Made by a program: the position numbers and the translations under genes | Assembly (NCBI GenBank): GCA_012026655.1 | Contig: JAAILG010000381.1 | Span: forward strand, 1 to 64,000 | DNA: 64,000 nt | Source of the DNA: Hydrolagus affinis | Taxonomy: Eukaryota | Reading direction: 5' to 3' | Notes under the pieces: generated by a model | Databases searched by the model: none | The model's input: only the letters and a program-made list of their open reading frames with translations | Told to the model about the DNA's origin: nothing | Shown here: in pieces, positions 19,259 through 56,362 of the stretch | How positions within the stretch are numbered: the stretch's first letter is position 1 | Layout of the letters: each line of letters opens with the position of its first letter

Positions 19259-20509
19259 ACATTCGGACAATTTTGACTTTTCATGCCACTACAAATCTAA
19301 CCTGCTGAGTGTTAACCTCAGTCCGCAACAGAATCAACAGGCCCCGATCTCCAGTATGGTTGCCTAACTAACCCTTAGCTCAGTTGGTAACACTCTCTCT
19401 CTCTCTGGATGGTAATACATCATTGTGAGTGTGAGTGTGTGTCCCCCCACCCCACCCCACCCGGGCACCAGGACTTGAACGCTTAATTTAGGCTGAGGCA
19501 CCAGCGTGTGGCATTGAGGGACAGACACGCTGCAGAGTTGGTGGCATCTCTTCACCGGTTCAGAAAGAAACAACAACAACTTGCGCTTACATTGCGCCCT
19601 CCCTCCCCGCAAAGGGTAGCGTCTCAGAGCGCTTTAAACACTGAACCAAGGACGCTGACAATCTCGGCGGTCTCATGGCACTTCATGGAAGAAAAGCCGT
19701 ACGTTTTCCCGGTGAGCTGGCTAATACTCTTCCATCGCTAAAAAGATTTGTTGGTCATTTGTTTTATTACTGTTTGTGGCGAGTTTCCAGCCCAGATATA
19801 ATATGTTGCTGCAAGCCGGGCATTGTACTTGTTATAAACCTATTGTGACCCGCTTTGTTTGAAACAGGGACATGATAAGGTATCACATCAAATGCAAGTA
19901 TTATTATTGGTGATTAGTGTACAGGATGGGTCTGCTGTATTAAATTAAAATTCTTAGTCTTAGTGAGTTACACTTATATACAGTCGTCGCATTGGGAGAA
20001 TGGCTTTCGCATTGGGAGAATTCTCAAAGTGCTTTACAAAGACTGAGCAGGACCCTCCAGGCTGGGAGGGAGCTGGAGGGGCGGTGGGAGTGGTGGTGGG
20101 TGGGGGGGGGGGGGTGGGAATGTAATCAAATGATTTGAAAGCATAGAGGGACAGGGGAAAAGTGCAGGAATTTCCGGAGAGAATTTCCTTCAAAGGGAAA
20201 GGGCGGTGATGGGGTGGTATAACAATGCCTTTCATGTCGGATAGAGGCACATGAAAAATGAGGGACACACTCAACATCTAATTCCGTGATGTGAATGTAC
20301 AACGTGATCGGATAAAGACATCGCCTACTCGAAGGCCAAATACTGCAAGGCCAAAAAAACCCACCAGTTTTTGTGTTGCTGTGTTGTGGCACTATGACAT
20401 CATGTAAACTGCTTGATTGGAGAGATGCCTTTGAAGCCAGGTCTTTGTGACAGCAAATTAATGTCATGTGTGCTAGCACAATGTCGGGACTGGGCTACAT
20501 ACACATGAT

Positions 20510-26500: not shown

Positions 26501-29500
26501 ACTGCTGTGTGCAATTGGCTGCCGCGATTCACCCACAAATATATACAGTCTATTCACTTTACAGTATATTCTGTGAAGCGCTTTGGGACATTGATAAGAT
26601 GTGGAAAGCGCTATATCAAATGCAAGGATTATTATTATTATTATTTTAGATGATTCGGGCACACCCTAGCTAGTGACGGCACAGAGTTGTAGTGTTTATC
26701 ATGATGACATTTTTGATCACCTGGAACGTTAGATAACTTAGTTGAGTATCTAATAACCAGGCGTTTTTCAGGAGGTTGTTTAAGAAAATAATTTTAAAAA
26801 CGACTTCAAAGACTGGACATTCTAAATTACCCCCACAATGGAGTCAGTCAGGGCAAACTATCTCCCCATTCTTGTCAAATGCTTTACTCAGTATCTTGTC
26901 AGCTCCTTAAACAGCCAGCTCATGACCAAGTACATGAGGCTGCTTAACAAATACCAATGAAAAAGAGATGCTTCAAGGTTTTAATTCAAGGAGGGATATG
27001 TGAATGAACAGCCATCTAATAAGGGTGCAAGCATCTCAAAAGGTTTCTGATTATTAATAAATCCAAGACATCTTTTTTATTATGTTAATTTAAAAACACA
27101 TTTTTGTTCCGTATAACTCTTAGTTTAAGTCCCCACCTGGAATATATCATCATCTTGGATTCCAGATAAACCCTTGTGAAATTTAAAGTTTGGGGAAAGA
27201 CCTGGGGAATGGACGAGAGAAAACTCCAGTGGGAGGGTTGGCAAAGAGCAGAAACAATTGTCTGAATGGTCTCCTTCTCCACTACATATTCTATAATTCG
27301 ATGCCCATTTTAAACACATCATTTAAAGCTTTATCAATTTTCTTGCAGAGGAGGATGCAACAGATCATGAGGCAATGCTTCATCTCTGCTAAGAGCAGAC
27401 TGGAATGTAAACTGGGCTACTTTGATCTTCTGGGCTGTGACTTTATAGTTGATCAAAATTTCAAGGTGATGTGCAGTTATTTGTATTCTTTTTATTTCCT
27501 GTGTTTGTGTTAAGTCAGAGATGACAATTCCATTGACTTGTTGCGATCACTAATCTTGCTGCTGCCAACGGCATGGACTGGCCACCAGCAAAAGTCCAAA
27601 CGTAAAATGAACTCCACCAAAAAAAGTGATTGACATACATGAAGGAACAATTCCCCAGTCCATTTAAACACAACACAGGCAGCAGATGTAACACAGCACT
27701 AGTTCAGCCATGATTGATTTGGATGGCATTAATGCATGCAAAACACTACACAGGCCCAGACAATGCACACTCTTGTCGTATCGTTGAATGGGGGGGAGAG
27801 AGAGAGTGGTAATGAATTGGAAACGAAACCCTCTCGTGTTTCAGTAAATGGCCGCTCGCTGTATCAGTGTCTACCTCGCACAGTGACTAATCCCACAGTA
27901 CAATGAGCCATCTGATCGCCTCTCATTCAAACATCCTTTATGATTAATTAAAGGACTTTGTTGCCCAGTTTGTTTTCTGACAAGAGAGGTTTTTTTTTAC
28001 ATAAAGGGTTGAAATTGTTCAAATATTTGATTTACAATGTGCCTTCATAGACATAATCAATATGTGAGAGAAAACACAACTTGGTTCCAATTTTAATAAG
28101 CTTACAATAATAATCCTTGCATTTGATGTCATGACGACCAACCCTCTCAAAGCATTTTCGCTGCAGAGTATGACTGTGTATTTGTAGGCAAGCGCGATTA
28201 CCAATAATCTGAATACAGCAAAGACCTACAAACAAGGAAGTAAATGACAAATTTTGTCCGGGGGATAGTTGGCTAGGACACCGGGAGAATGACTGGCCTT
28301 TTCGCAGTGGTTACCACATTCGCTATTTGCAAACCCTTTCGACAATCTTTGCAATGAGATGTCAGAGCATGGGTTGGTCTGAATCGCTTTGCAGAATATT
28401 GAAGTGCATCAGTAATCTTCTAATGTCCACAGCTAACGGATAACTTTGTGTAATTCCCATTTGTGAGCCACTGTTTGTGCGGGTTAGCTGCATGTTTTGT
28501 AGGCGAAGAAAGAGGTTCGTGTCTCTCAGTTACTGGTCACGGGGAGAGGAGGTGACTGTTGAGATCGCTGTGGAAGATTGCCTTTACTCAATAAAATTAG
28601 GGTCTCCATGACCTTGCAGCGAAGATCCTGGCAGGTGGATCCTAAACTGGGATTTATTTACAGCCTAATTTACTATCGCATCAGTCGGGAGATCAGCCAG
28701 AATTTGTGCTTTCACTGCTGGAAAAGTGAGGCGGGTGGAGAAAATTTAGAAAGTTGATAGGATTTGTCTGCAGTGATCACCAAATTAAAAAAAGGATGAG
28801 ATATCCAGTAGATTTATTGGTGGGAATGTTTTACCTGTTGTCATGGTGGCTAAGGCCAAACAGAACTGGTTAGAATGATTTGCTTAATGTCAACATGCGA
28901 TTGTATGTGTAATGTTTGGATTAATAAATCTGCAATCTGAGAAAAGCCAGTAGACTTATTGGCTATATCGACTTAAATCGTCAGAATCATCCTGGCAATG
29001 ATATTGCAGTTTAATAACAACAACTTGCATTTATATAGCGCCTTCCACGCTGGGCGGCGTCTCAGAGCCCTTTGCAATGGCGGAGCCTGAGGCCGGGCCA
29101 GGGGGAGGGGGGAAAGTGACCGTAAGCGTGGTCGGTCGAAGAGAAAGGTCTTCAGGTGTGACCTGGAGATGGGGAAAGAGGAGCGAGGTGAGGGGGTTGA
29201 GGGAAGGAGTTCTAAAGGTTGTGGAGCGGAGGATGCGGGGTGACAAGGAGGAGGTCAGACCCAGTAGAGGCAGAAGGTTCTGCTGTGAAGAGAGAGGAGG
29301 TTAGAGAGGTCAGGGGGGATGCAGAGGAGTGGAGGGATTTGAACACAAGAGTGAAGATCCTGAAGTTGATCCACTCTGTGACAAGAAGCCAGTCATGTTT
29401 GGTTAATACCTAACCAACCATTCAGCCACTGAACAGTACTGCACAGGAGTCAATACAAATAATTAGTTTGTTGTTGTCCTTTCACTTATATAAATCATCC

Positions 29501-32218
29501 AATGGTTATTTAATTTATCACACTCACAAAGTGGAGTCCTGTAGCTCAGTGGTTAGAGTACTCGCCTTCCTTACAAGTGAGAGGCCTGGGTTTGATTCCA
29601 GGCAGATCAGGGTGAAACCTTGGCCAATTTCCTTACTCCATAGGCCTGATAATAATAATCCCTCAAAAAATGAACAATAATAGATTGATCATTTCAATCC
29701 TCGACTGTTTGTGGGGACGCTGCTGTGTGCAAACGTTGCCACCTTTCGTCCACATATATACAGTCAATTCATTTTACAGTATATTCTGTGAGATGTCTAG
29801 AAGATGTGAAAAGCGCTATATCAAACGCAAGGATTATTATTATTAAATTGTTTTTTTTTGTTCTTAGCTTAGAAAGTTTGAGATGCATTGGCCTAAAGCC
29901 ACTGTCTGTTTTTAGCACTAAGCTACAAAGAGCTGAAGGTTACAGAATCCAGGTGTGATGAGGTAGGTGTTGTGGTGCTATAATTGGCATCAGTCCACCT
30001 GGGTGAGGAAGGGAAAAATCTGGTAGAATCATTTGTTGTGATCCCTCCTGTTCAGTGACCTAAGGGCATACATGTGGGACATTGGATGTAAGGGCATGTG
30101 ACCTGGCTCTGTGTTGACGCTGGCATCGCAGGTGAAGCATTAAAACACTCCAAATTGTTGCAAGTCTGAAATTGCTATCGCACTCGCTTCAAAATAAAAC
30201 TTTTAGAAAATCATGAAGAGGGTCACCATCCGAAAGGTCGGTAGAATTCTTTCTGACCCTTGAGACGGCTTCCCGGCTGCCATATCTATTTGCCAAATCT
30301 CCTCACATTAAGGACCTGGATTAAGCAGCTGGAGGTGAATACGGCTGGTACGTGACATTGGGCTTGCTACTCAAGAACATTCAAGGTAGCTGGCACGTCA
30401 CAAGCTGTCCTGCAGAGGTCCTCCTCATGTGCTGAAAGCAGCTAAAATGAAAGTGAGTGCGATGAAAGAGGGGGATTTTAGATGGGATTTAGTCAGAGGT
30501 GCAGAGGGAGGGAGCGAGGTTACGGACATAGCAGTAGAAAATGGAGCAGAGGAGTGGATGAACACACTGCAGGCTCCAGCAGAAGGAGTGAAGGAAGAGT
30601 TGAGGTCGGAAAAGAATCACTGAATAATGGAGGTTCCTGGGCAAGAAGGGATTTATAGGTGAGGATACAGATCTTGAAGTTGATCCTTAGGGAGACAGTG
30701 GATCTTAGTGGAGCTTAGCTTCAGGTGAGCTATTTCAGTCGCACAAAGTCATCGAGGCGAAGGGAGAGAATCCAACCCAAAGGCTTGAGGCATCATCCAG
30801 ACATGAGGGGTTATATAAATACAATTTGTTGTTGTTGTTAATCAGTAATCCGTTGCATTTAATATAGTGCTTTTCGCATCAGGTGGACATCTCAAAGCGC
30901 TTCACAGGATCTATTGTAAAATCACGTGATTTACTGTAAAGAAATAAAACGTGTATTTTGTAGGGAAATGCAGTGTGCTGTTCTTTAAGGTTCTGCACTG
31001 ACAACAACAACAACAAAATTACATTTGTAGAGCGCCTTTCACGCCGGGAGGACTTCCGTGGATAAGTTTGTGCAAAAGAAACTGGGAGAAACATTTGAAC
31101 TTTAAAAAACCCACCGTAAATATCATAGTAGTTCTGCACCATCTGGTGGACGTTTAAAGCATTGACGTGTGAAAAGGAGTGCTGAGTTTCCGTATCCAAG
31201 ATTATGCAAAATTGGATCACTCACATTCAGGGCTATTTGAGAGAAAATGTTGTGTACAAACTGGCTGCGCTGTGTTCACCAACAAATAACAGTCACCACA
31301 CTTTGCGGGAAATTCCTGTGGAGTGCTTTGAGATGTGTCGGTAAAATAAATGGCTATTTTTTTCTTTAGGATGGTAAAACCGTTTTTGCGCATCCATCCA
31401 AACCAAACGCGGCTTCACAGAGAACCACTTTAATACCATTTTATATCTTCTGTGGGTCCTAAACTGGGAATGAGGAAAAAATACACTGAAAAAGTGTTTG
31501 ACAGGAATGCAATTGATCTATTTCAGGTCTGGTTACTTGAGATGAACAGTAGCCCATCTCTGGAGAGACACTGCGAGGTTCTCAAAAATGTCATCCCCAG
31601 TTTGGTTACTGAAGCTCTCGGTAAGATAGCCCATTTTCACCCTCGAGTTATCACAAAAAGACATTCGTGGTAAGGGCGGGTTTTCAGACATACGAAATGA
31701 ACACCCTTCTGTCACTTGGCAATTCTGCTTGTTTTAACAGTGGCTCTATTTTATTATTAGATATAGTCATTGAGATATTCATCAAAAGCGGACAAGCGCT
31801 ACCCATCCTGCCACTTCAGTCACAAAAGAAGTTCATCCTGCTCTATCACACTTGCTTCCTGGATTTGAACCTCAAGTCGATCACAAAGTCGAGGGCGGAG
31901 AATCTCTTCTTGGAAAAGATACCACACATCAGCCATTCTGACTTTTCAGCGACGAATCCGAAGAGGCTGGAGCCGTCCGCAAGCTTTGCTCGCACCCTAA
32001 CCAAATTAGCTCAGAGATCGTTTCACTCGCAGCGGCAGCTGCCAGAGATTAAAGAGGGACGGAAGCGACACTCTGCCAAACCTAAATCTAGCCAGGATGT
32101 AGCAACCACTCAAGGTGCTTTGATTGAATGTAAACCCAGTACGGCATCGAAGGCTTCTAAAGCCCACTCAAAATTGACTCCAAGATCGCCTCGTAAATCA
32201 TCATCAGCTAAGGCTTAG
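20510..32218 (+). CDS. ttll10: Tubulin polyglycylase TTLL10 paralog B (11 coding exons, 549 aa, divergent)
   Basis: Exons 20510-20615 (tentative; GATATGG Kozak, MASDDDG.., AG|GTGAGT), 21149-21257, 22287-22360, 22742-22862, 23184-23269, 23697-23868, 24246-24417, 25778-25918, 27349-27465, 31527-31620 (VWLLEMNSSP), 31761-32218. They total 1650 nt in one open frame. Six internal exons have the same lengths as copy A (121, 86, 172, 172, 141, 117 nt). Confidence 0.92.
21497..21757 (-). mobile_element. tRNA-derived SINE (internally deleted)
   Basis: Family tail and head both present. Confidence 0.8.
24535..24823 (-). mobile_element. tRNA-derived SINE
   Basis: Family sequence with the head partly deleted. 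Confidence 0.8.
25989..26285 (-). mobile_element. tRNA-derived SINE (left member of a head-to-head pair)
   Basis: Family sequence ending ..tttacaggactcca. Confidence 0.85.
26302..26645 (+). mobile_element. tRNA-derived SINE (right member of a head-to-head pair)
   Basis: tggagctcctgtggctcagtggttaga..gcaaggattattattattatt. Confidence 0.85.
27684..27951 (+). other. Conserved intronic block in TTLL10-B (paralog of 436-712)
   Basis: Contains long identical runs with the reverse complement of 436-712, e.g. cctcgcacagtgactaatcccacagtacaatgagccatctgatcgcctctcattcaaaca. Confidence 0.85.
29531..29845 (+). mobile_element. tRNA-derived SINE
   Basis: gtggagtcctgtagctcagtggttagag..aaggattattattatt. Confidence 0.85.
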
Positions 32219-32902
32219 CTCCAATCATGTATTAAGCCCCAAAAGTGTCCTGGAACTCAATTGGTGCCAAAATAATTGAGGTAAAGGTAGATACTTGGTA
32301 GATACTTCACAAAATTACCATCCAGCGATATTATTATTGTCCAGGATTAAGGCCCTTGGCAGAAATAGATATCACAAAGTTGATTCAAGCTAAGAAGATT
32401 TTAGCTCATAAGTAAATTTTTTTTAAAAAAAGAAACCCAATTCTGCCTGTTTAGTATTGTTGCCTTACAAGAGTGACGAGTTTATTTCTTGTCTGATTGT
32501 GTGAAAAAAATGAATATCTCAGTGAGGTGTATAAGTTCTACTCAGTAAAGTTGTAGTACTTATAGTGCACGTGTAGAGAGAATTCCCCAACAGCATTGCT
32601 CGTATCGTTTCGTTTGAGAAATTAAAAAATAACCATTCATATCGCCTTCTCTTCATTTTCACTTTGGCTCAAAGGCTAGTAGTCTGTTTCCTATTCAAAA
32701 CCTATATTAATGCTGTTCAGTTTCAGAAAACGCAGCTATGTAAGTGAAATGTGATTCAGAAAATCATCAAGCGCAGGTGCTATTTCTTAATGTAAAATCT
32801 AATCTTTAATTTTTAATTAACTACATCTGCATTTATCAATGATGCAATACCATCAGTGACAATTAACACATGTTTGCAAGTTTCAATCTAATGAAAGGTA
32901 TT

Positions 32903-33281
32903 GACAGCCTTGCCCCACCCTACATCCGCGACCTCCTAACCCCCTACCAACCTGCCCAACTCCTCCGCTCAGCAGGCTCTGGCCTGCTCCATGTTCCCCG
33001 ACCCACCCTCCCCACCAATGGTAGGCGAGCCTTTAACCACTTTGCCTCCAACTTCTGGAACTCCATCCCGCAGCTGTCCGCCTCACCCCCCGCCTGGCCT
33101 CCTTCAAGTCCCGCCTTAAGACCGTCCTCTTCCGACGGTCCCATCGGTCACTCCAAATCCTCCCCTTTCCCTCCACCCTCCCTGACCCTAGCTCGGGTCT
33201 GAAACAATGACTATCCAGCGTTTTGGGACGTCCTCCTTTACGTGAAAGGCGCCGTACAAGTGTAATTTTGTTGTTGTTGTT
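32903..33281 (+). mobile_element. L2-type LINE 3' fragment
   Basis: LAPPYIRDLLTPYQPAQLLRSAGSGLLHVP..GRRAF..WNS motif and (TTG)n tail. Related fragments at ~785-1000 (-), ~29013-29390 (-), ~47430-47810 (-). Confidence 0.8.
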
Positions 33282-34034
33282 CCTGCTGACAATAACAGTT
33301 TATTTTGGTCTGCCGAATGTCTGACACATGCGAAGCCCAGCACCATGCTTAAGGTCTAAACCATCATTGCCAAACTAGGCTAGGAGATGCACATGCGTAT
33401 GCTACCAACGCATGAAAATGTTCCTATATCTGGAATAGGATTGGCATTCTCTCACACATGATGGCCAAATTGCCTTCTGTGCTGTAAATTTCGAAATATA
33501 GTACTTCAATACTTCGGGAGAAGTATTTCCAGAAACTTTGCAGGTGCACAAGGCTTGGTGGACCCTAGAGTACGTGTTGCGAGTTTACTCACACGGCCTG
33601 CCGTTGAGAACACGGTCTGGCAAGCTTCCTGATTCTTGTTCAGGTGAGACCACTCCATCCATTTGGCCTTTGGTTTGGTGGAATACAGGAGCCACGAGGT
33701 AAGAATCCCAGTTTAAAAAAATAAAGAATTAAGCAAATCACAGAAAGAATTAAACATAAGAGAAAATCTCTTTCCCCAGAAAGTGGTTTTGTTGAGGAAT
33801 TATGCGCCACAAATCATTGTTGGAAGTAATATAGAGGTACCTGTTCTGGCTGTAAACCCTGAAAACAAATGGTGAATGTATGTTGAAACTGAAGAACATT
33901 TGCAACAGAAATTATGAATGAATGAAAGAAGTATACAAGTGAACTGGGGTGGATTGTATTTGAAATATTGTCAATACAAACAAACTAAATTATGAACTGG
34001 TCCAGTTACACCCAAACTGTGTATTGCTATTTGC

Positions 34035-37000
34035 TTACAGCACAAACAGATAAACTGCCAGAAGCTCCAGGGCAAAGGCTAGGAACAATGGGCAAAAAAT
34101 ATAGAGCAATTCATGTTGCAGAAATCTGACCGCAAACACATTTGAATTGCTTGCACCCATGGTTGAAGAGCTTTCTAGCTGACAGGTTTGTGAAGCCTGG
34201 TTCTGTCCTACATTCTCATCCCCTTTTTCCAATTCTCTTACCTCTGACCTGGTAAGGTTTGCCTCATTGTTTGCTCTTAATTTACATTTCATACATTGGG
34301 TTGATTCCTCAGTGTCGACTTTTGAATAAATGACACGTATGACTGCTTTACCTGGGCTACCTGCACCATCATTATCTTTCATTGAGACAATATCAGAGAC
34401 AGAGTTCAATGTTTTCTCTGACTCCTCAATTCCAGTCCCCTTCACTTCCTTCTCTGTCTGTTTGGGGGTTTGGGGACTCACTTTTGTGGGATTATTCTGA
34501 GCAAGCACAGTACTGTCTAATGATTCTTCATTAGAAGAATGAAGTGTGGCACTCTGCAGTGTGTCTTCCATTGAGTCTGAGGTTGGTTGGGAAGTAGAGT
34601 CAGTTGTTTGGAATGTCTCTGTACTTTCCTGAACATTAATCAATATCTGTTTGGGAATCATGGATTTCGGTGCATGTGTGGAAGTTGGTTTGTCGTGGTC
34701 GGGTGACTCCGCTTCGGTGCCTTTCAATGTTACATCTGCTTCTTTATCCTCAGTGTCATCCTCCAAGGCGAAGATCGACCATTTGCTGGGAATGTACTTT
34801 AGCAAAGAATCCCACTTATGCTCTCCGCAGTGGCTGCCAAGCCAAAAAAAAAGACACTGACAAAAGATACAGCAACAGAACCAAAATCAACGCACTGGTA
34901 TCCATTTCATTTTACAACCCGCAGTTAATTCACAGATGATCTAGCGATGAACCAGGTTCTGAGTTTGCTTTCTCAATCCCTGGGGGAGGGGGGGTGGGGG
35001 GGCAACTCATCTGTCCCAGGGGATTTCAGCCTTTTGAGCCCAACCAGAAATAAATAGGACTTTGCCAAACAGTCAGAAGGAACGGGGATGGGGGATGAGT
35101 GTGGCTGCAGAAGGAACATGTTTGACCTGCTTCTTATATTATAATCTACAAGTGAGCAAATATTTTGGAAAAACCTTTATAAATCTTGCAGGTGGTTTGT
35201 GCACCCACCTGTTTTACAAATGACAAGGATTGGTCATTTTATTTTGTCCCATTTCCCCCTCCCTCCCTCCCTCCTCACACACACACAATGCAAACAACTG
35301 CTATTATCTGGCAACAGCTGTGACCTAGACAAAGGTAATTATACATTCCTACACCAGTCACCTGCTGTGAAGAAGATTAAAGAGATCTCAAAAATGTACA
35401 ATTTGAACAGTAAAGGATCAACTTAGTCGACTCACGGCCTAACAAAGGATCACTTCTATTAATAAATATGTAACTCAAAAGCTGTAACTTTTGGCTGCAT
35501 TGCAAATTCTCTCTCTTCTGGTCACAGAAATGAAGAGCAATTGTACTTGAATCCTGTGTAAGCACGATTACTACCGTTACAAGGTAATCAGGGAGCAAAG
35601 CAAACTGTGATACAGGGGAACTGAACAGACTGTGGAAGAGAAAACAAAATGCATGACCACCATGTAAATGTGAGGAAAAGCACCTGTGAGAGACACTCCT
35701 TTGTGAGATGGGAATCCCTGTACCTCAAACTGACCTGTGACACTGGCCCTGAACCAAGATCTCCTGAAGCTGAAGTCTTACTCATCACTCTTTCCTGAAA
35801 GGGTCAAACACTTACTTTCAGAGAAGAAAGCGGTGGTGGTGAGGGGCAGGGGGAGGGTGGTGGAGAGGGCAGGGAGTGCTAACCAAATCCATGGTAACAA
35901 CACAATTTGCTTTCTTTTTGATTCAATATCCGTGTCTATGAAACACGTCATCCGGTGAAGGCAAAAAAAGTAAAAGTTAGTCGATGGGGATGACAAAATA
36001 TAAGCCATCGTTTGAATGACAAAGTTATATTTAAAAATCCCCCACTGGTGCAAATTTGCTTCACAATCATTTAAGGAAATTTCTGTTTCCTGGCACCGGA
36101 ACTGATGAACGCACGTGAAATAGTACGGATGGTGGGTGGGGACGCAGAGGAATATGGAAAACTACAATACATGCAAATTTGCCGGTGGATGTATTCAATG
36201 CTCCGTACCTATAATTTACTACTTGCGTAGATCGGACGGTCAGTCTCCCTCGTGTCTCAGTTGGTAACACCACTGGCTACGTATGGAGAGACTAGAGAAT
36301 CCCAGCAATGTAGTTGACCTCAGCAGTAGGTGGATATAACACAACCATCAACATTGTACTAATGATCTTTTCGTTAGGTGACAATACTAAGGTTTAGGGG
36401 TGCTAAGATGATAAGGGATTTCAAATTTAATTTACCTATTAAAAAAAAGTTTGGTCGCCTTAGCAATTTGCACAAGATAAATCTGAATGAATCCAACCAG
36501 AGACTGTTTGAGAGAAAATGGAGGCTGAACACACAAAACAAAATCTCAATGCAGCAATAATAGCTGGGCGATTGAGCAATTGTCTGAGCAACCGGTTGTT
36601 CAAAGCTTCGGAAAGATTAGGAAGACATCTGGCAACCACCCTGAAGTTGACCAGTTAGAACACGTGTACGCCATTGTTTTATACATACTCAGTAAAACAA
36701 GAAAGTTAAACCATTGCACTTACCTCATACAGTTTCCTTGCAGCCATGTGTCAATCGATTTGAAGTGAAATTCCATATTCTCATAAAGCGGGGAGACAAA
36801 CTTATAGGAATCAAAAATCTGCACCTTGCCATTCCTCGGCCGAGCACCGAGCGTCTTCTCTCCATCTCCAAACCAGATCTCAACGTGCACAATGTTGTGG
36901 AGCTGCAATTTGGCTGTCAACAATCGAGAAAAGCTTGGGTTTGACAAAAATTACAAAGTGTGAATAGGCCAGACATTGGACATTCAATGGCATAACTGGC

Positions 37001-39780
37001 TGAAACAAACACACTGCCAAAAACGGGCAGTTTGACCCGACTAGTTAAATAATAATCTGTGTTATAATCCTTCACATCTTATCAACGTCTCAAAGCGCTT
37101 CACACAGCGCTTTGAGACGTTGATAAGATGTAAAGTGAATTGACTGTAGATTTGTGGGCGAAACACTGCAGCCAATCGCGCACAGCTGCGTCCCCACAAA
37201 CAGTCGTGGATTGAAATGACCAATTTTATTATTGTGGGTTTTTTGGGGAGATGGATTATTATTAGGCGTGTTTGTGAAGTAAGGAAATTTGCCTAAGGTT
37301 TCGTCCTCACCTGCCTGCATTAGAAACACAGGTCTCATGCTTGTAAGGCAAGTGCTCTAACCACTGAGCTACAGTAGCTCCACATACTTATTGGGCAAAA
37401 GCAGCAACTGTCTGATATGTACTTCAAGTCTGCAATTATGTAGTTGATTTGTAATTAAGGAGAGCTTGTCTTTGTGACTGTCTCATTCTCTATTAGATGA
37501 CTACTTCTAAGATTTTTCTAACCCAGGTAGAATATTTAAAACAACTAGTTCAACATCCCAATGTTGGGGATTGAACCCCCAAACATTCTGTTTCAGATGC
37601 AAGAGTTCTACCAACTGAACTGGGCTGAATGAATGACCAAAACATGAATGACCAAGCCAAAATGTATGCTTAAATAAGTATTCATCATAGCACTAGTCGT
37701 ACCTTTGGGGTTCAACTTTTTGCCTGAGACAAAGACAAGGTCCCCTGGCTCCATAGTCTCCTGTGTCCTTATGTTCGGGAGTGTGTCATACATGTAACTC
37801 TTGTTCCCATGAATAATAAATCCAAAGTCATCCCTCAGGTCTCGTACAACTCTCCTCACCAGCCCACCGCCATCCCGAAACAAAGGTGTTTTGTCTTCCG
37901 GAGCTAGGAAATAGTTAGTAGGAAAATGGCAATGTCACACTAAATCAGATCATATTATTGCAAAGCAACCTTAATTCACTTTGCGTCAGAGTGATTTCTG
38001 GCACTGGTAGAACAATGTTGATAATGATGAATCCCAATATGAAAAAGATCACACTGTGTACGGTCCAGAACAATCTGCGGTTCAATCCCTGATCAGTGTT
38101 GAGTTTGCTGATCTGAGTTAAGAACATTGAGTATGTGTGTTAATGTTACGTGATGACAGGATTGGATGTGATCATGCTTCAGACAGGCAAGAGTCTTGGT
38201 GAAACTCACTGTCTAACCTGACAAATGAGAACAGATACTTGACTGAGATATAGATTTGCTACTGCTCTCGGAATCATAGGTAGCGTGTGAGTCTAAGAAA
38301 TCCATTGACAAACACCCCGATTATTAAATTCCGCAAGCCATACTGATAGTGATCAAACAGGCGAATTGAATGATATAAAAGTATGACATACTGTATATGC
38401 TGGATTTGTACAGTCATTCTGAATTAAGCATAGAAACATAGGAACAGGAGTAGGCCATTCAGCCCTTCGAGCCTGTTCCGCCATTTAATTAGATTATGAC
38501 TGATCTGTATCTCTACTAATCCTTTTAATTCCAATTTCCCGCTTTCTCCACGTATCCCTTAACACCCTGACCTACCAAAAATTTATCAAGCTGACTCTTG
38601 AAGGTGTGGATGGATCTAGAATCGGGAGAGAAACTTCCAGATTTCTACCAACCCTTTGAGTAAAAAAAAATGCTTCCTGATTTCTATGTCCCCTTGCTTT
38701 GCATTCCACCACCAAAAAAAGTAGCTTTTCTGATAAGCAATTCTATCCGAGTGACGTCAAGCACACAATGAAGTCTGGCCATTTTTGCTTACTCACTTCC
38801 TGGTTGGTAGGACTTCTGTGCATATGGCACACCGATGTAATTCTTTGCTTGTTCGATGAATTTTCGCCGCAGTTCCCATTGCTGAACTGTGTTTGTCACC
38901 TGGTGGGGCTTTGTACTTATCACTGAAGCATCGTGCAGTTCCTCCTGCAGTGGGCACAAGGTCGAGAGAATTACTTTAACAGGTTCAATAAATCCACTAT
39001 TTTATTAGTTGACGTTTTATATAACGTTCATCGAACATTCATTATTCTCTTGCCCTTAAGCTTCTGAATCTGGTTTTCTTGCGAGCTATGACTTATTCCA
39101 CCTCATTGTTGAGATGGTTGAGATTGCAGTCACTAAACTCCCTTCCAAAATATCTTTGCCTTATTTCTTCTCTACCTGCCTACAAAACCCTTTTAATTAC
39201 CTTCCACCGACTGATAGAAATCTGGAAAACTATGCTTTGAGACGCAGCTCTACATGTTCCAGAACACTAGAACCTCCCATTTCTTTTAGACGAGGGCATG
39301 GGTTGTTTAAAATGACAATTTGCACTTATAATGGCTCACTTTATGTGGGACTTTGGTTTTAATGTTTCATCCAAGGGTATGGCACCTCCTTCAATAGAGA
39401 ACTCCCCCAGTACTGCACTAGATTGGTAACCTGGACTGGGGCTCAACTCCCAGTTTGGCCTTGAGGCAAGAGCGCTGTTAACTGAGTAAAGCTGACACTT
39501 GACGTAGTTTCTTGGAGTAACCCAAAATAAATGAGGAAACCACAGGGTGGAAAACGCAACACGTGAAACTGATGGCTGAATGCTGTGTGCTGGAAATTGT
39601 GCAATTTCACTACTACAATTTGCTGGCACCATCTCAGAGATCAGCCCATGTTCTCGGAAGACACGCATTACAAGCAGCGATAACAAAGATGGTGACGTGA
39701 GGAGGCAGGTTCGCATTTTTCACTGAAGTGACATAATCACCTCATGTGCTGCTTCCTCCATCAGAATCATAGTTTTACGG
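34035..39780 (-). CDS. Uncharacterised NlpC/P60 (papain-like) domain protein, catalytic Cys position replaced by Gly; acidic linker; possible hydrophobic C-terminal tail (455 aa as modelled)
   Basis: Phase-consistent GT-AG exons: 39751-39780 (MILMEEAAHE, tentative start), 38797-38944 (..LRRKFIEQAKNYIGVPYAQK), 37703-37903 (PLFRDGGGLVRRV..MEPGDLVFVSG), 36724-36913 (HNIVHVEIWFGDGEKTLGAR..KSIDTWLQGNCM), 34035-34833 (SHCGEHKW.. acidic S/T/E-rich ..LLYIFCPLFLAFALELLAVYLFVL*). Total 1368 nt, open. The motif order GxPY / D-C-x-G / GDLVF / HV-x-I matches NlpC/P60. Confidence 0.82.
37064..37382 (-). mobile_element. tRNA-derived SINE with internal inverted duplication
   Basis: Family sequence; palindrome at 37074-37131. 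Confidence 0.8.
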
Positions 39781-41234
39781 GTTGTTTCAGGTCGAGCATA
39801 ACTTGTTGCAGTACTACGTTACTGAAATTATTATCAAAGGTACTGTTAAATTGACTCCAATAAAGGTTAAATTTACAGTGAACTTTACAATGGGGCGATT
39901 GTGGAGTCCGGTTAGGCAGCAGTAATATGTCTATTTAAGGAATTTTGTTCAATGATACTCCACTACACGCAGTGCCACCTACTGAGCTAAACTGACATCA
40001 TCAGAGTTCTTTAACATACAAACCACAAAAGAGTGTCAGATGCGGAACACCGGCCCGACTGTCTTTTCGTTACAACATTGGTGTCCTGGCCTCAACTAAT
40101 CACTGGTATAACAGCGAGAGGTGTATAGCTAGTTGGAAGCACTAACGTTTTTCAGAAGCGCAAGCCGCTGAGATCAGATTTTCAGTGAGTCTCAGCTCTC
40201 AACTAATATTGGGCCGTGCTACAGGCACAAGCTTTGCGCATTTTACAAACCCCAAATGATAGGCAGAGCCACCGAGGACCAAGGTAAAGACTGCTGTTTA
40301 ATGATATTCACACGAACCCTCAATTAGGCAATCAAACTGAAACTTCAAAGTTTCCATCAATGTACTAATCTACAAAGAGTTCAAACTCCACCACACCCAG
40401 CACGACATTTTCTGTTGCTTTGATTTATTTTTTAATCAAACTGGTCTAACTTGTAAAGGTATAATTTCTACAAGAACTCTTCCCGAATGTGTGCTTTGAA
40501 CATGGTGTTTAAAGCTGTAGCGATGCCTGTTTAGGTAAAGATGGTAAAAATCAGACAACACTATTTGAAAGGGAATTTCTTTCTCCCCCTCTGTCCTGGT
40601 CAACAATCTTCTGGACTAATTGGCACTTTGTGGCTGTTTGTGAGATCATCCAATGGACAAACTAGCTGCTGCACTTGCCTTCAGAAAGTTAATACACTTC
40701 TCTGAGCAGAGTTTTGAAATATTTAAATGGTATAAAATGCAACACACATATTATTCAAAAATCAAAGTAACTTATCAACTGGTCACTGGGTGTGCAGGAG
40801 GCAAGTTCCCTTTTCCAACTTTTTTTTCGGTCAGTCGGGTGTTTGATAATGTGGAAACGTCACAACCAAGCTTAATCCATGAGTTTTAATGCAGCCCAAA
40901 TTTAGAGGACGCAATTTTTTCCTTTGGCAAATGTACATGAAGTAAGTTTGACCATATTATTGCAGTTCCCAGTAGTTATGAGCTCACAGGACAAAAATTC
41001 CGGGTTTGTGGCACTTGACTGTAAGTCGAGAAACTCTTGTTGGGACAGAAGAAGGACCTACAAATGTAAGTGGGCAAGTGTGAATAATCTCAGCGCCTGC
41101 ATCCTTTACGTTATTGAGAACCAACACTCATCAAAAAGTGCAGTCAGAATTTATACTTGATTAATATTCCTCAATAAACTGTACTTGGAATCGTTAATTG
41201 AGTATGAACCTATGCAAAGACACCAACCTATTCG

Positions 41235-41527
41235 CTCTGTGAATTCAGCTTGCGGCAGTGAAGGGGTTATCGGCAACTTGTTCCGTTTGTGTAGGTGTTG
41301 GGCATGTGTTTGGCCGTACTCTATTTGGCAGTTAATACAGTATGTGGAATCTGGGTCCCTCTGCGGTATATCCTCATAGCAACCGCTTTATGTCACTGAG
41401 ATTATCCAACAAAGGAGTGAGCACAACTGCAAACCAGCCTGGGCACTCCTCCTCATGTCATTGTACAACTCGTTGGAAAGAACCAGTCGTGTAACTTCAC
41501 CTTCATTTCTCACCCACCCGGAAGTTT
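41235..41527 (-). promoter_or_regulatory. Putative promoter/first exon of the NlpC/P60 gene
   Basis: Lies ~1.5 kb 5' of the first coding exon. Contains an ETS motif CCGGAAGT (41518-41525) and an RFX X-box half-site (CATAGCAAC, ~41375-41383). Duplicated at 14794-15080. Confidence 0.55.
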
Positions 41528-42143
41528 TTTTTAAAAAAAAAGAAGAGCAACACCCAAATTAAAAACTGAAATGCTTTAATTCTCGGTAGCCGACCGGTAA
41601 TAAGAGCATTACATTCTGGACAGTCTTTACTCGTGTTTCTGTTCTGCTTCTGAAGAAAAAAATGTACTGTAGTATTTTTCCTCAGAAGCCCATAAAATCC
41701 AATCACAGCCGCAGGGAATTCTCTACCCCCAAAAGGCTGTAGATGATCAATCCTTGAACATATTCAGGATTGAAATTGATAGATTTCTTATGGATTAAGA
41801 GATATGGGGATATGGCGAGAAGGTGGAGTTAGATTAGACGGTCAACCATGATTTTATTGAATGGCGGAGCAGGCTCAAGGGGCCGAATGGCCTACACTTG
41901 CTCCTTATTCTTATGTTCTTATGCATCAGTGGTGCCAAAATTAAGCTTATTCATTGTTAATTTCAGTCATAATCTAGCTGCTAAATGTATCTTCCCCAAT
42001 ATTATGTCTTTCTTATTGTGCCTCAGTAGCAAAGCCTTCAACAAACAATGGAAGCGAGAGTTTGTGATGCAATGTTTGTATACTTCAGTTTCCATTTTAC
42101 AAAACATGACACAAGAGAGAGCATAGATCAGTGCAAGGATGTA

Positions 42144-42332
42144 CAGTAAAATCCCGATCAACCGTAACTTCCGTATAACCGGCACATCAAAAAAAGGTCC
42201 GCATTCGATTAACCGGAATTTATCCAGACAAATGCATTCAAAAAATTATTCTGTTTTCGGCCGAATATCTGACATGGGCTTTAACTGACATTGGCCAGGT
42301 CCCGAGGGTACTGGATAAACAGGCTTTTACTG
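42144..42332. mobile_element. Tc1/mariner (Tigger-like) MITE
   Basis: TIR CAGTAAAA..TTTTACTG flanked by TA on both sides. Confidence 0.7.
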
Positions 42333-42691
42333 TACTAATATAGAGATGCCCAAAGTACTGGCTTTTATAAAGGGATTCCTTAATTAAAACGTCCAGAGCC
42401 ACCAGAAATACATCACAGTGAAGTCAAAAGTAGATTGCACAATAGGAATCTCTGAGAGGCAGCACATTTGTAGACCCAAAATGTGTCACTGTTAGCACAA
42501 GGCGATAAACTGAAGGTACATTATGATTACCAGAGGAGGGAAGAGGAAACAGCCTAATCATTATGAGCTGCAATAAATTTAGCAGTCCCAAACATCTGGT
42601 TATATCTGTGTACATATGCAAAGTATGGCTCCATTCCAACCCATAATGGAAGAATAGCAAAGTGGGGATCAGTCCCCCAAATTGTATATAT

Positions 42692-43030
42692 AATAATCAT
42701 TCTTGCATTTGATATAGCGCTTTGCACGTCATCTAGACGTTTCAAAGCGCTTCGCAAAATATACTGTAAAGTGAATTCATTATTTTTTTGTGGGGGGGGT
42801 TGAGGGAGGTGCGAAATGCGGCAGCCAATTAATTGCGCACAGTAGTGTCCTAAGAACAAGCATGGATTGAAATGACCAAATTTATTATTGTGTTTTTTTT
42901 TAGGAGGGATTATTATTAGGCCTGTGGAGTATGGAAACTTGCCCAAGGTTTCGCCCTGACCTGCCTGGAATCAAACCCAAGTCTCTCATCTGCAGGGCGA
43001 GTGATCTAACCACTGAGCTACAGGACTCCA
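42692..43030 (-). mobile_element. tRNA-derived SINE
   Basis: Family tail through to head ..accactgagctacaggactcca. Confidence 0.85.
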
Positions 43031-45246
43031 ATATATGCTTAGTGTTACAACTGTACTGGCCTACTATAGATAAGTGGGCAATGCTTACTTTATTATATGT
43101 ACGTCAGCATCCAATAGATGAAGGAAAGTCAAGATTTCCTTTGTGCATACAGGATCAGTTCTTGTTTGCCTAAGGAAATCCCCCTTGGGGTACTTTGCCT
43201 GAGTGAGTGACAATTTTTCACACAGCTTACATAGTAAAAAATTTGAAAAGGTGCCAGGGTTCAATAGTGGGTTAATATGTAATAATATGCAGCTAAAATC
43301 GTGAAATTTTAGTTCCAGAAAGACCGAGAAATCAAACACCACATCCAACACCGCAACACCGCACAAGTGACAACCCAAACTTGTGTGAATTCAAAGACGA
43401 GGCTTGAACCCCGCAACTTGCTGACTCACACGGAGAGTGCCACCAAGTGAGCCCAGACTGACATAATTTTGGGTGATAGGATAGCATGATTCACCCACAT
43501 ATTCCTGAAGTAAGAGGACATTCTCAGCCATAAAATCTAAGCTGAAAACACCAGTTGGATTGTGTTATTTTTTAAAGCAATGAGCATGTTCAGTGAACAT
43601 AACAACGGTATGAAAAGCACAAGATGTCCTGTGACTTAGGGGACATGGGTTTAGGTTAGAGTGAAAAACACTGAGTAGTCGGCATAATTTAATGCATGAT
43701 TAACTTAAACTTCATTTATTTGTTTCACTTGCACATCTGTGAACTTTGCATTCAGGTGAATGTTTCACCCATCAAAAATACAGTATATTCTGTGAAGCAC
43801 TTTGAGACATGATAAGGTTCTCTATCAAATGCAAGGATTATTATCATTATTATTATTCTGTTAAATATCCCATTGACATTGAAAAGCAACGGGAGTTTCT
43901 CTCGATATCCTGGCCAATAATCCCCTAGAATTGGTAAAAAAAATTAACGATTTCACTTCATGGCTATTTTGTGGGAAAATGACTGTGTTCGAATTAGCTG
44001 CCAATTAGATATAATTGCACAGTTACCACATGTCACAGTAAATTCTATGAAGCACTGCGATATTTTCATGACACGGCAAGATGCTATATCTAATAAATGT
44101 AAGGATCATTATCATAATTATAAAGATGTTAATGTCAAAACTAGTAAATGGAGTATTTTCCCAGTTTAGAATCACTCTCAAGTCAGAGAAACTGTGAGGT
44201 TAGACTTGAGTAACAATCTCTTTACTGTACTCCCAACAATATTAACCCTAATTTCGGAGGCCCGCTATTCAACGGTGTGCATTTATTTGTCCACTTTCCA
44301 CATTCGCCCCCGAGTGAAGCGAATGGTTTTGTGATGGTTCAGCTCCCACCATCACAAAATGGGATTCTACAAATTATTAATTGGGATATTTCCCCCAAAA
44401 GTATGATGTGTATCTTGTGCAAATATGATCTCATGTGTAAATGTGTAACACACTGGTTAGGTCGCAGTTGAAATATTGGGTTCAGTTTTGGATGTTCTAT
44501 TTTTGACTGGCTAAATTGGGGCTTTTTTTTTTACCGGAGAAGGATATGATCAAATCTTTAAAATTCTGATAAGGATGACAGGGTAAATAGGTGAAAGGAA
44601 AATTCCTTCTGTTGGGGAAATTAGTAACATGTGGGAATAGTCTCAAGGTTGTTAGAAGGAAGTAGGGGAGAGATTAGAAGCAATTTCTGCACTCAGAATG
44701 CAGAATTCATTACTACAAGTGGCTATTGAAACTTGGTCAACAGAGAGTCATTCAAAAGGAAACTGGATAAGCACCTGAGAAATAATAATCCTTACATTTG
44801 ATAAAGCGCCTTACACATCAGGAGGATTTCTCAAAGCACTTCACAGGATATATCGTGAAGTGTAATGACTGCATATTTTGTAGACAAAATAAAAACATTA
44901 ATGAGTGTGGATGAAGAACTGTGAAAGTGAGATTATTCGTCAAGGATGTGTAATAGAAGATGTGAAAAGCGCCATATCAAATGTAAGGATTATTAAGGAT
45001 GAAAAACAGGAAGCAATAGCCCAGAACAATGGTCAGTTGGCCTCCTACTGTGCTGTAAAATTCAAAAGTTTACGACACAGACTCATTGGGAATTAATAAT
45101 AACAATAATAATAATCCTTGCATTTGATATAGTGCTTTTCACATCTTCTAGTTGTCTCAAAGCACATCACAGAATTATAATAATAGTATAATATTGTTGT
45201 TAGAGCAATTTCAATTTGAGGCATTTAAAGGTGAGGATGTAGATAA

Positions 45247-45888
45247 CAGAGCTGCCAACCTTCAAGGAAGATGTTCAAGAAGGTTACAGTAATTTTTCAG
45301 GAAGGTTTGTTACATTTTCAGGAAGGATTTTGTTATTGTCTCTATCACTTCAGTATCAGCTGATAGTTAAGCCATTAACTTGACATTAACAGGCATCCAG
45401 GCACCCTGGACACCTTAATTTTAGCGTTGGGCGCGTAAAAAAAATAAAAATGTTATGATCTACAACACACTTGGGCGCCTTGAAAAAATCTGAAGGTCCA
45501 GCTGGGCCCCCTAAAATAAAGATTTAGTGTAAAATAAAGATTTATTACTCTCTTTGGAGCTCCCATGCACGTGCGTGTACTAAAGTACAGCAGTGCAGCA
45601 TACACACAGACACACACTGCATAATGCACACTACCACTCCCTGCACATTGCAAAGAGGGGTTTCTGCCACACACACACGGCCTTGCTAACTATTAGACAC
45701 GCTCCCTCCCGAGACACTGTGGACTTGTACACACGTACATGTAGTAACTATATGGGTGGTGCAAGGGGGATTTAGCTTAAATTATGAAATGGCAAAAAAT
45801 CGGAAGTTATTTATCCGGATCGGGAGGGCAGAAGGGAGCATGTAAAAGCGGAAGGCTTCCGCAAAAATCGGGAGGGTTGGCAGCTCTG
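45247..45888. mobile_element. Non-autonomous DNA transposon with 14-bp TIRs and a 6-bp TSD
   Basis: CAGAGCTGCCAACC..GGTTGGCAGCTCTG flanked by AGATAA on both sides; subterminal ttttcaggaagg repeats. Confidence 0.75.
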
Positions 45889-48800
45889 AGATAATCAAAT
45901 GTGGAGGAACAGTATTAGAGAATAATAATAATTATTGTATTTCATAAAGTGCGCCAGGTCCTGCGACCCACCCACCACACCATTTCACTCCACCCTCGCT
46001 ATCCCCAACCCCAGCTCGGGTCTGAAACGATTGTCCAGCTCCTTGGGACGTCCTCCTGACGTGAAAAACGCTATACAGTACAAGCGTCATTTTGTTGTTG
46101 TTGTTGAAACGCTTCACACAATAGTGTAAAGTGAATTGACTGTATATTTTGGGGTGAAATATACTTGCCACTCCACTTCCGAGTCCTTTAACCTTGTATT
46201 TCAAATGGACATTAAAGACCCCATCGCACCATTGTTATGAAGAGCAGGAAGTTATCCAGGGTTCTGACTATTCCCACACCACCAAAAAACAAGATCGCTC
46301 ATCTCATTGCTTTTTATGGGACATAACTGGTAATAATTATTCATTATTATTATAACCAGTGTGGATTACCTTGAATGAGTGACTGCCTAACAGTCACTAC
46401 CCTTCAAAGTAAATTAATTCCGGTGTAAAATCCTTTGATGTGATTAGGTGCTATTTCAAGTGCAAGTATTATTTATAGGATTATTGTTTCGGCTGTCCCT
46501 CTCATACCATGTTGTTTAATCAAAGTCAGAGGCGGGTCTAGGTATCATTTTTAGAAACTAACATGAAGAATTTCAGATACTGTGTGGACTTTCATGCATG
46601 CGTGGGCTTCCTGCAGTTAAATGGACGAAAGGAGATTATCAAAAGCCCATCATGAGTGGCAGGGTCCAGATAACAGAAACAAATGTGAGCTGTGTATTTG
46701 ATGTGCAAATAATGTTCAGGGTTTCTGTTAAAACAATTTGGTTGTTTTGTCGTTTGTTGTTTGTATAGGCTCTTTGAAGTTCCTGAAAACTCAACACTTC
46801 AGCTTAGATGTGTTACAAAAGACTGCAGTTAATTCATTTGAGCAGCTCACAATAAGGTCGAATAGGGTCATAAGCAGTTTCCAGGAGGGGGAATTCTAAC
46901 ATCTAGCTGAAGTGGCTCTGAAGATTATGACAATTTAAGGAGCTTGGAAACTCAAAACCAATAATAGGGTTATTATTGTGGATTGGGAGAGAGAGAGAGA
47001 GAGGGAATCTTACAGATCGGGTGGGATTGAAGTCGAGTTTTACTTCCAAATAGTAGCCAAGTAGCATGTGTCAAGGGTTATTTAGAGGCCAATGCCTGCC
47101 CTTTGTGTAAGTGTTTGCCATTTTCATTGCAGAGTGGTGAAAAGTATGTACTCTGGAAGTCTTCAGCTATCTCCCAGCACTAGTCCCATAGTGGATGTGA
47201 AAATAATGTAGATTTCTGGTAATCATATGGAATACAGCACACAGTAATATCCAAATCCTTCTTCTACCAGAAGTTATCCAGAGCGACAGTCCTTTTCTTT
47301 CACCTGTAGACTGACTCTGTCTCTCACTCCTTCCCTCTAACACATACTTTAGTTTGTGCAAATACGCACTTTATTCTGCTGGGCTAATTATATTTGTCCA
47401 ACTTGCTGATAGTATGAGGGCATTCTACAGCAACAACTACTTAGATTTATAAAGCGCCCTCCGGACGGCGTCTCAGAGCGCTTCACAATAATGGATCCGG
47501 CGGCGAGCCAGGGGCAGGGGTAGAAAGGTGACCGAAGGCGCAGTCAAAGAGAACGGAGTTTAGCTGTGACCTGAAACTGGGAAGAGAGGGGGCGAGGCGA
47601 AGGGAGTGAGGAAGGGAGTTCCAGAGCCTCGGGGCGTAGTGGCTGAAGGCACAGCCGCCGAGGGTGGAGCGGAGGATTCGGGGACATGGAGGAGGCCAGA
47701 CCTGGTGGAGCGAAGACAACAGGTGCTGGTTTGAAGAGAGAAGGGAGGAGAGGTAGTGGGGTGCAGGGGAGTGGAGGGCTTTGAAAACAAGGGTGAGGAT
47801 CTTAAAATCAAATTCTACCCTAACTTCCTTCCACCAAGGAACCGTGAGACAGCGATCAGAAGTGGGATTAAACCTGATCCCTGATCTAGGGGTGGGTCAC
47901 CATGACTAAAAAATTGCTATCGTGGTTCAGAGCAACTAACAGCACAACCAGTAACCCTCTCGCCTGTTTTGCTTAATCCTAAACATTGTAGTGTAATTTA
48001 CCCACTGGGCCATCGAGGGAACTCCCATTTTAAATTCAGACATTAATCCGCCCCTTCAGGGCACTTTACGAGCAGGGAAGGGGAAGATCAGAGATATTTA
48101 GTGGTCAATGTATTAAACTCCTTGCGTAACTTTTTACCGTTGCTGAGGCTTAACGCCTTAAATGCTACTCCAGTAAAACTTCAGTGGAAAGGATGGGAAT
48201 TCAGGTGGATTTGTCAGCCTGGTGTAGCTAGAGTTAACTCCACACGCCAGATTGGAAACGGTTGGTTTAACTGCTATGTAATTTGAGCCCCTGTAATCTT
48301 TGGAGTTTTGAATATAAAATTCATAAATGATTTGTCAAAATGAGGCTCAGAGTTCAGCTCATAAACCAGAAGGTTTTCAATGTTTGATTCTCCTCTAACC
48401 TGGGTGTGGCTCTGAGCTGCAGCAACATTTTCCAAATTCCAAGTTTCACCTCAGGTTCAGTGTTAAACACACAGGCGGAACTAGTTCCTGGATCGCTGAC
48501 ACCCACATCGTTCTGGTGATTTACGATGAGGGAGCGGTGGGTGGAGGGGCAGGGAAGCTGTTGGAAAGCCTGTGACTGCAACAACACTCCAAACCAGTTT
48601 TCCAGTAATATCAAATCACTCTTGATTTTTGCGATACAAAGACATTAAAAGTTTCAGGTTGCTTTTTCTTTTGTGAATTTGAAGTTCAATAACTGATGTA
48701 ATGCGATCAGATGTTACCTACATATAAAACAGGATGGGAGCGTTGCGGCCAAACAAGCTAGTGGCGTTGGAATAGACTCCTATCGGAATTCTATTGAAAG

Positions 48801-51595: not shown

Positions 51596-51672
51596 ATGAG
51601 ATCGACGGCATTACCAGACAGTATTAGACTGAAGTAGCTATATCTAACTTTGCCTGGTAAGACATCAATCAA
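51596..51672 (-). ncRNA. mir429: pre-miR-429 hairpin
   Basis: 3p UAAUACUGUCUGGUAAUGCCGU (51605-51626) and 5p GUCUUACCAGGCAAAGUUAGA (51643-51663). It is third in the 200b-200a-429 order. Confidence 0.96.
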
Positions 51673-55013: not shown

Positions 55014-55149
55014 CAGTGGTTTCCAAACTGTGGGATGTGCCTCCCTTGGGTTGGGTGGTGGGGGGGAATGTGAAGGAGGGGGAATGCACAATGAAAACTT
55101 TGCTGAGTTGGGGTGGGGGGCGCTGCTGTTCAAAGTTTGGAAGCCACTG
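55014..55149. mobile_element. hAT (Charlie/MER5-like) MITE
   Basis: TIRs CAGTGGTTTCCAAACT / AGTTTGGAAGCCACTG; 8-bp TSD gtctaagg / gtctacgg. Confidence 0.75.
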
Positions 55150-56281: not shown

Positions 56282-56362
56282 CACTCATTAAACATCGTTA
56301 CCAGACAGTGTTAGAATTTATGAGTGTAATCCAGCACTGTCTAGTAAGATGTCCACAGAGGA
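56282..56362 (-). ncRNA. mir200a: pre-miR-200a hairpin
   Basis: 3p UAACACUGUCUGGUAACGAUGU (56292-56313) and 5p CAUCUUACUAGACAGUGCUGGA (56330-56351) on the minus strand. Confidence 0.97.

Follow-up and report, generated by a model that had tools for sequence, protein, structure and literature searches.

The 64,000-nt window that we analyzed, from Hydrolagus affinis contig JAAILG010000381.1 (all positions below are numbered within it), holds a minus-strand gene with a peptidase-like product next to two copies of the TTLL10 ligase. Sequence comparison shows its exons to encode the NlpC/P60 module that formed the front of an ancestral fusion gene with TTLL10. We judge it likely (probability about 0.7) that the module now stands as a gene of its own, whose product would be catalytically dead and tail-anchored, with the domain in the cytosol.

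Five minus-strand exons join with GT-AG at every intron into a single open frame of 455 codons that ends in a stop codon at 34035-34037 (−). This agrees with the five-exon, phase-consistent frame of the preliminary description, whose quoted NlpC/P60 motifs also occur in the order stated (in exons 2, 3, 3 and 4). Exon 2 (38797-38944, −), located by tblastn with shark, coelacanth and sturgeon proteins, encodes the N-terminal helix and the YIGVPY motif, and its acceptor coincides with the shark exon start EEL. Exon 3 (37703-37903, −; 65% identity to horn shark) contributes the catalytic-Cys helix, the pocket loop and the PGDLVF motif. The position of the catalytic His (36885-36887), an invariant Glu and the β-sheet core are in exon 4 (36724-36913, −), which is 70% identical to horn shark and 89% identical to a close orthologue, the predicted protein P0280, which was the best of three matches among 1.84 billion representatives. 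The first part of exon 5 (34134-34833, −) completes the domain and runs on into a polar, fast-evolving, low-complexity linker of ~210 residues (67% S/T/E/D/Q/N/K/P). Exons 2-5 are each matched by vertebrate proteins, exon by exon, and 126 of 218 aligned residues are identical to the horn-shark protein (E = 9e-79). This identity, together with simulated neutral drift at 0.1 changes per base, under which the frame stayed stop-free in only 5 of 400 trials, argues that the gene is more than chance. Exon 1 (39741-39770, −), tentatively an ATG and 10 codons (30 coding bases) with an in-frame GT donor scoring 3.5, is the weakest part of the model and a plausible guess only, the one element of the proposed frame that found no support. 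Its donor is one of 11 upstream phase-0 donors scoring at least 3.4, two of which come with an ATG, and a profile search with vertebrate N-termini gave no match there (best E 2.1, located elsewhere). No signal peptide was seen in the window protein, and the gene is eukaryotic and spliced. A genome search in which only the best candidates were scored found one NlpC locus and no second, intact copy.

Among the 61 candidates returned with exon 3 as query were two horn-shark proteins of ~1000 residues, with the NlpC/P60 domain N-terminal and a TTL domain behind it; Pfam reports both domains in four of five isoforms. With the shark domain as query, 148 shorter proteins (120 of them listed) and 101 longer ones were found. 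TTL (PF03133) is present in 90 of the 101 longer homologs, many of which carry the name TTLL10, and the peptidase motif LDCC lies ahead of the TTL motif in 82 of 99 long homologs and behind it in none of the 99. Fusions are held by fishes (sharks, coelacanth, sturgeon, bichir, tarpon and lamprey), tetrapods (caecilians, axolotl, turtles, crocodile, lizards and snakes) and invertebrates (echinoderms, molluscs, cnidarians and sponges), and also, by accession, by choanoflagellate, ichthyosporean and chrysophyte records. Among the named matches for the peptidase domain there is no mammal, bird or frog, many rows having no name. On these comparisons, the NlpC/P60 domain is normally part of the TTLL10 polypeptide in most animals sampled, a closer tie than the partnership with TTLL10 at which the preliminary description had guessed when it proposed looking for fused homologs.

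Exon 3 alone reached E = 0.026 (14.9 bits, cut-off 23) against Pfam NLPC_P60 (PF00877), and intact homologs likewise reached only 15-20 bits. The fold was clearer from a protist family member, P0037, whose predicted structure (pLDDT 88.6) has NlpC/P60 proteins as all of its best matches (Foldseek E = 3e-6; Z = 12.8, rmsd 2.8 over 120 residues). A profile of 71 members, run against the sequences of the Protein Data Bank (PDB), found Bacteroides dipeptidyl-peptidase VI (E = 3e-4) with Cys and His aligned. Carried over from P0037 by alignment, the predicted fold of the window protein is that of NlpC/P60, as a structure search had been expected to return. A complex prediction for the horn-shark peptidase domain and its own TTL domain scored 0.00, which counts neither for nor against binding.

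Some members of the family vary in other ways. The Heterodontus proteins P0001-P0011 keep both Cys, but the conserved Tyr of their first motif is replaced by Cys and the Tyr following Asn-Gln-Ala by Asp; the activity of the horn-shark domain may therefore also be altered. Two metagenome proteins, P0229 and P0230, join the peptidase domain to PF01739 (CheR methyltransferase) in place of TTL.

For the catalytic site we used 190 of 231 matching rows, those that cover the domain and align well enough (41 were dropped); the rows are not independent, ~10 of them being isoforms of one shark. All 188 homologs with a residue there read Leu-Asp-Cys-Cys, where the window reads Arg-Asp-Gly-Gly (37866-37877, −; nucleophile-equivalent codon 37869-37871), and none of the 188 shares its Arg or either Gly at these columns. 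The nucleophile motif Asp-Cys-x-Gly becomes Asp-Gly-Gly-Gly at 37863-37874, which leaves the protein without the nucleophilic Cys that is required among the NlpC/P60 motifs given in the accessible part of PMC12067865. The loss of this Cys, already noticed in the preliminary description, is not an isolated change. An invariant Gln (188/188) is Lys in the window, which departs further at a Tyr (168/188), a Trp (140/188) and a Gly column (175/188; a one-residue gap). In a profile alignment, the Gln column falls on the QAY stretch of bacterial members, adjoining the active site, and we take it to belong to the pocket. Retained are the His, Glu, Tyr and Arg of the site, the Gly-Asp motif and the fold core; His and Glu are found in 189/189 homologs and Gly-Asp in 188/188. 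At 31 near-invariant columns, the window changed four residues and kept 27; of 189 homologs, 142 changed none, and the others changed at most three. At variable columns, 48 of 83 residues differ between the window and Heptranchias. Since the two proportions should be alike without selection, the fold appears to be still selected and the catalytic site remodeled. From its sequence, we predict that the window protein is a pseudo-peptidase on the NlpC/P60 fold, not an active member of the family.

Two features of the 3′ end, a conserved hydrophobic tail and a lost splice donor, were missed by the preliminary description. The tail (34035-34133, −, including the stop), a predicted anchor on the grounds of hydropathy, conservation and a shark model, has a hydropathy of 2.38 over 19 residues within the last 24, with one conserved Glu inside. 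It is identical to P0280 at 31/32 residues and to Carcharodon and Scyliorhinus at 21/32 each; toward P0280, identity is 87/103 in the His half and only 84/181 in the linker. The tail is no stray intron sequence, since it also ends Carcharodon XP_041061665-7, Scyliorhinus GCB63700 and a Logan record, and a looser version is found in sturgeon, including MGH0125570. Such hydrophobic ends occur in 5 of the 120 listed short homologs, two of which look like low-complexity artifacts, and in none of the 99 long ones. In the Carcharodon short-form model, the domain is followed by a disordered linker (pLDDT <50) and a terminal helix at 441-466 (pLDDT 82-90). The window tail is thus modeled as a single C-terminal hydrophobic helix, the hallmark of a tail-anchored protein, and the gene product is predicted to be tail-anchored with its NlpC/P60 domain in the cytosol. 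The Branchiostoma short forms P0023, P0024, P0026 and P0029 have a conserved amphipathic stretch after the linker, below the hydropathy threshold, which may by analogy be an end that binds membranes.

Two forms are on record in sharks and sturgeon: in one, splicing continues to the ligase, and in the other, the frame reads through the donor into the tail. In the long forms of sharks, the linker exon ends at a phase-1 donor that splits a Gly codon, a position deduced from proteins and not from shark DNA. Aligned with both shark forms, the window has an Asn codon at the equivalent site (34140-34142, −), without GT. P0280 likewise has Asn, and no difference at those bases is listed for X1, a DNA-like read run. 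In genomic terms, the stop, the donor loss and the separate ATG exons of the ligases leave the peptidase and TTL domains without a single frame in the window.

X1 was one of four runs aligned to 32001-52000, X2-X4 being one RNA sample. It behaves as a relative's DNA, ~1.5% apart in five listed pieces (40 of its 1211 rows of differences were listed). Within 34039-34690 of the linker, 19 of the 20 listed differences change an amino acid and one is silent, where 4.8 silent ones would be expected (P = 0.026 for one or none), and differences are more frequent than in the background (P = 2e-4). On one sequence pair and a partial table, the pattern suggests that the linker is under positive selection.

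Three mir-8/mir-200 family hairpins (51601-58413, −; Rfam RF00241, 60-72 bits) lie upstream of the peptidase-like gene on the same strand. We take the mir-200 cluster to be a synteny marker of the TTLL10 locus, presumably as in the human gene order. The NlpC/P60 locus of the window groups with sharks, with weak support (80/74). Both orthology and position put the gene at the mir-200/TTLL10 locus. Its placement by the mir-200 cluster and the TTLL10 copies in the preliminary description was therefore right, but it does not lie inside a TTLL10 gene; it is tail-to-tail with the plus-strand copy A.

Several observations weigh against a separate, dead and membrane-bound product. The Cys loss rests on one assembly, and it is without confirmation in a second genome because P0280, as predicted, starts after the Cys helix and is without the first 109 residues. 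The short forms of sharks and sturgeon come from annotation models and may be artifacts of intron read-through, which is made less likely by the conservation of the tail. Cryptic donors exist in exon 5, and the one at 34352 (score 3.9) is in frame with a copy-B acceptor at 9372. Stranded RNA reads on exon 5, with the same polarity as over the mir-200 region (mean depth 2.41, 0.21 and 0), speak in favor of the gene but could be read-through of the mir-200 transcript. RNA depth is low and falls to zero over the tail; it is also zero in the exon 1 bin in all three runs, though low everywhere. None of the gene's splice joints is among the 15 listed of ~14,100, those 15 all being repeats.

Four other explanations were weighed. 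In the first, taken from the preliminary description, the dead domain is a non-catalytic reader that still binds the glycine chains of polyglycylated tubulin. The retained His, Glu, Tyr and Arg would suit such a role, a Cys-to-Gly change leaves the pocket open, and RipD (4jxb), in the part of PMC12067865 available, provides a precedent for a retained, non-catalytic NlpC/P60 domain that binds its substrate, although it binds peptidoglycan outside the cell, unlike the window protein. The idea is nevertheless weakened, because the invariant Gln (now Lys), the Leu of Leu-Asp-Cys-Cys (now Arg; each 188/188) and the Tyr, Trp and Gly columns around the site are altered besides both Cys. The predicted tail anchor would moreover imply a membrane location and not the axoneme, and the ligand of the intact family is itself not established, so that we regard a reader as improbable. 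We think it similarly improbable that the gene is a relaxed remnant, with a decaying Cys half, and with the His half and the membrane tail as the chief targets of selection. The four invariant-site losses all fall in exon 3, the truncated start of P0280 and a long stem branch (0.37) are what decay might produce, and the first exon is not clear. However, identity to Carcharodon is as high in exons 2-3 (44/74) as in the His half (65/103), the frame and four splice junctions are intact, and half an NlpC/P60 domain would not fold.

It is less probable still that the module remains fused, by a 25 kb splice from a cryptic donor to copy B with copy A nested in the intron. Strand and ancestral order are indeed those of the fusion, and exon 5 offers two cryptic donors, an in-frame one of phase 1 (34352) and a strong one of phase 0 (34242). 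On the other side, copy B starts with an ATG exon of its own, X1 carries differences at +5 and +6 of the 34352 donor, a few reads continue beyond each of the three stronger cryptic donors (depth 2 at 34222) and the tail is strongly conserved; nor was a shark-like short linker exon found on the way from the peptidase exons to either ligase copy (39 and 17 candidates, best local score 23). An assembly error that produced Arg-Asp-Gly-Gly in an intact enzyme would need only one T-to-G change for each of the three replacements, all within 10 bases, if the ancestral codons were as we assume. We consider this very improbable, since the pocket has also changed 20-80 residues away, at columns of which two are altered in P0280 too, and the window and P0280 share a long stem (100/99).

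We thus favor a gene in its own right, with a dead, tail-anchored product. Once the lineage had parted from sharks, the ligase half would have been duplicated head-to-head and the short form fixed as an independent gene. Tentatively, the dead copy may have been kept as a membrane-tethered protein-binding module with a remodeled pocket, in ciliated or germ cells, and not as a polyglycine reader; its folded binding domain would sit on the cytosolic membrane face in ciliated or sperm cells. By analogy, the ancestral domain could have been an amidase that trimmed the glycine chains built by its partner ligase, a conjecture to which we give rather less than even odds.

In its available part, PMC11244163 (2024) calls deglycylases ‘unidentified’, and the portion seen of bioRxiv 2024.03.31.587457 (2025) likewise has no enzyme identified that removes glycine from tubulin, both in agreement with the preliminary description, to which no tubulin deglycylase was known. 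According to accessible passages of PMC4230590, CCP2/3 are not deglycylases and Giardia M20 metallocarboxypeptidases, the sole deglycylases named there, act on 14-3-3; the fold and chemistry of the latter are unrelated to NlpC/P60. The sections available of PMC10318531, on papain-like families, contain no mention of glycylation. A literature search, with most subscription journals and supplements outside its reach, found no publication on an NlpC/P60-TTLL10 fusion, and none since 2023 on ‘tubulin deglycylation’. That an eraser gave rise to the window gene would fit the data, as an argument from domain fusion, and the peptidase-like front domain of TTLL10 may, going by the fusion and its invariant residues, be the long-sought chain remover. 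The fullest version of this idea, which we think unlikely, is that TTLL10 NlpC/P60 would be the missing tubulin deglycylase, made in jawed vertebrates both as a writer-eraser fusion and as a free, membrane-anchored eraser. The chimaera lineage would then have split the pair and deprived the eraser of its activity, putting it to new use as a fast-evolving, positively selected membrane protein, and its duplicated writers would have changed the residue that determines elongation. The self-limiting behavior of TTLL10, described in the available part of bioRxiv 2024.03.31.587457, counts against an eraser, since cells may not need one. The construct in that work is a Xenopus core (residues 105-570), which, with no named mammal, bird or frog match, may explain why the peptidase domain was overlooked.

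The protein encoded in the window cannot itself be an eraser; the intact shark, turtle and sturgeon domains are testable deglycylase candidates. It is the intact family that makes the deglycylase question testable, with the window copy as a dead, lineage-specific exception. What the locus adds is a natural dead version of the domain, a conserved membrane-tail form that has intact Cys in sharks and sturgeon and can be expressed without the ligase, and an alternative isoform that likely became a separate gene through one donor loss.

Compared with TTLL10 proteins that have an N-terminal NlpC/P60 domain (RefSeq models, among them Heterodontus XP_067873173, Latimeria XP_064424002 and Pelodiscus XP_075762301), the window gene has the same domain (58% over 218 residues) and the same locus order, linker then ligase, downstream of the mir-200 cluster. 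In contrast to these fusions, it has no ligase in frame, has lost both Cys and the donor, and is accompanied by a ligase in two head-to-head copies. With the short forms (Carcharodon LOC121287805, Scyliorhinus GCB63700 and Acipenser MGH0125570) it shares the domain, the polar linker, the hydrophobic helix and the stop. The Carcharodon and sturgeon short forms differ in keeping Leu-Asp-Cys-Cys and the donor-position Gly, and the Scyliorhinus model is without the Leu-Asp-Cys-Cys part of the domain. The fold and the order Tyr...Asp-Cys...Gly-Asp...His are those of bacterial NlpC/P60 peptidases (Acd24020, 7cfl; Bacteroides dipeptidyl-peptidase VI, 3npf; RipA/RipB). The family differs from them about 12 positions after the His, where 172 of 189 homologs have Gly and 16 have Ala instead of a triad residue; its invariant Glu at His+2 may stand in for the third polar residue of the triad. 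Finally, glutathionylspermidine/trypanothione synthetase-amidase (2io7 and 2vpm) also places a papain-fold amidase before an ATP-grasp ligase in one chain, and its amidase cuts the glycyl amide made by its own ligase. That amidase belongs to the CHAP branch and has a small-molecule substrate, so it is an analogy for the ancestral fusion only; its match to P0037 (Z = 5.7 and 5.0, respectively) is at a level that shows no function.

Of the two TTLL10 copies, copy A (20510-32218, +) has its own ATG exon (20510-20615) and 10 exons, and copy B (2147-13485, −) has its own ATG exon (13485-13377) and eight exons in the window, with matching last two exons on contig C7514. The copies stand head-to-head with both frames open, and the ATG exon of each ends in a phase-1 donor compatible with the exon that follows. 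Their first exons align with a score of 79, reached by none of 5000 shuffles; this shared first coding exon (20510-20615, +; 13377-13485, −) had no match among the proteins compared. In the tree, the copies form a clade (95/93) whose sister group is the sharks (100/100); they differ by dS 0.72 and dN 0.19, and therefore appear to stem from an old duplication within the lineage. Both have Leu at the position equivalent to TTLL6 Q180, a residue tied to elongation in the accessible part of bioRxiv 2020.06.07.139295; among the 86 homologs that have the motif, the residue is Gln in 66, Gly in 10, Arg in 8 and Cys in 2, and never Leu. From the sequence, this substitution may alter the elongase activity of both copies. 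Copy A has lost 15 codons in frame at the end of exon 22287-22360 (+), including that for a Trp present in all 73 aligned fusions. The first TTL motif of this copy, rich in glycine, is also degraded, with the frame kept. A plus-strand candidate for the shark upstream exon (19487-19738) was rejected, a profile search giving no match there. Downstream of copy B, contig C7514 has an exon that belongs to another gene (781-924) and aligns with the C-terminal region of the TTLL10 model from coelacanth (P0133 840-887); this model may be a merged annotation.

The X-box that had been read into the 5′ element, and that would mark an RFX-driven ciliary gene, did not hold up: taking the previously proposed exon 1 as the gene start, we found none near it, and the window has four near-consensus sites against 4.35 expected, which is chance level. 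Two exact half-sites occur, at 19117 and 35889. The best X-box-like site between the divergent TTLL10 starts (19113-19126) lies 1.4 kb before the copy A ATG, again at chance level windowwide. Lastly, tRNA-like Rfam matches (4114-4185, 13872-13943, 29535-29610 and 37311-37374) and many 300-base repeats represent an abundant interspersed repeat, likely a tRNA-derived short interspersed nuclear element (SINE).

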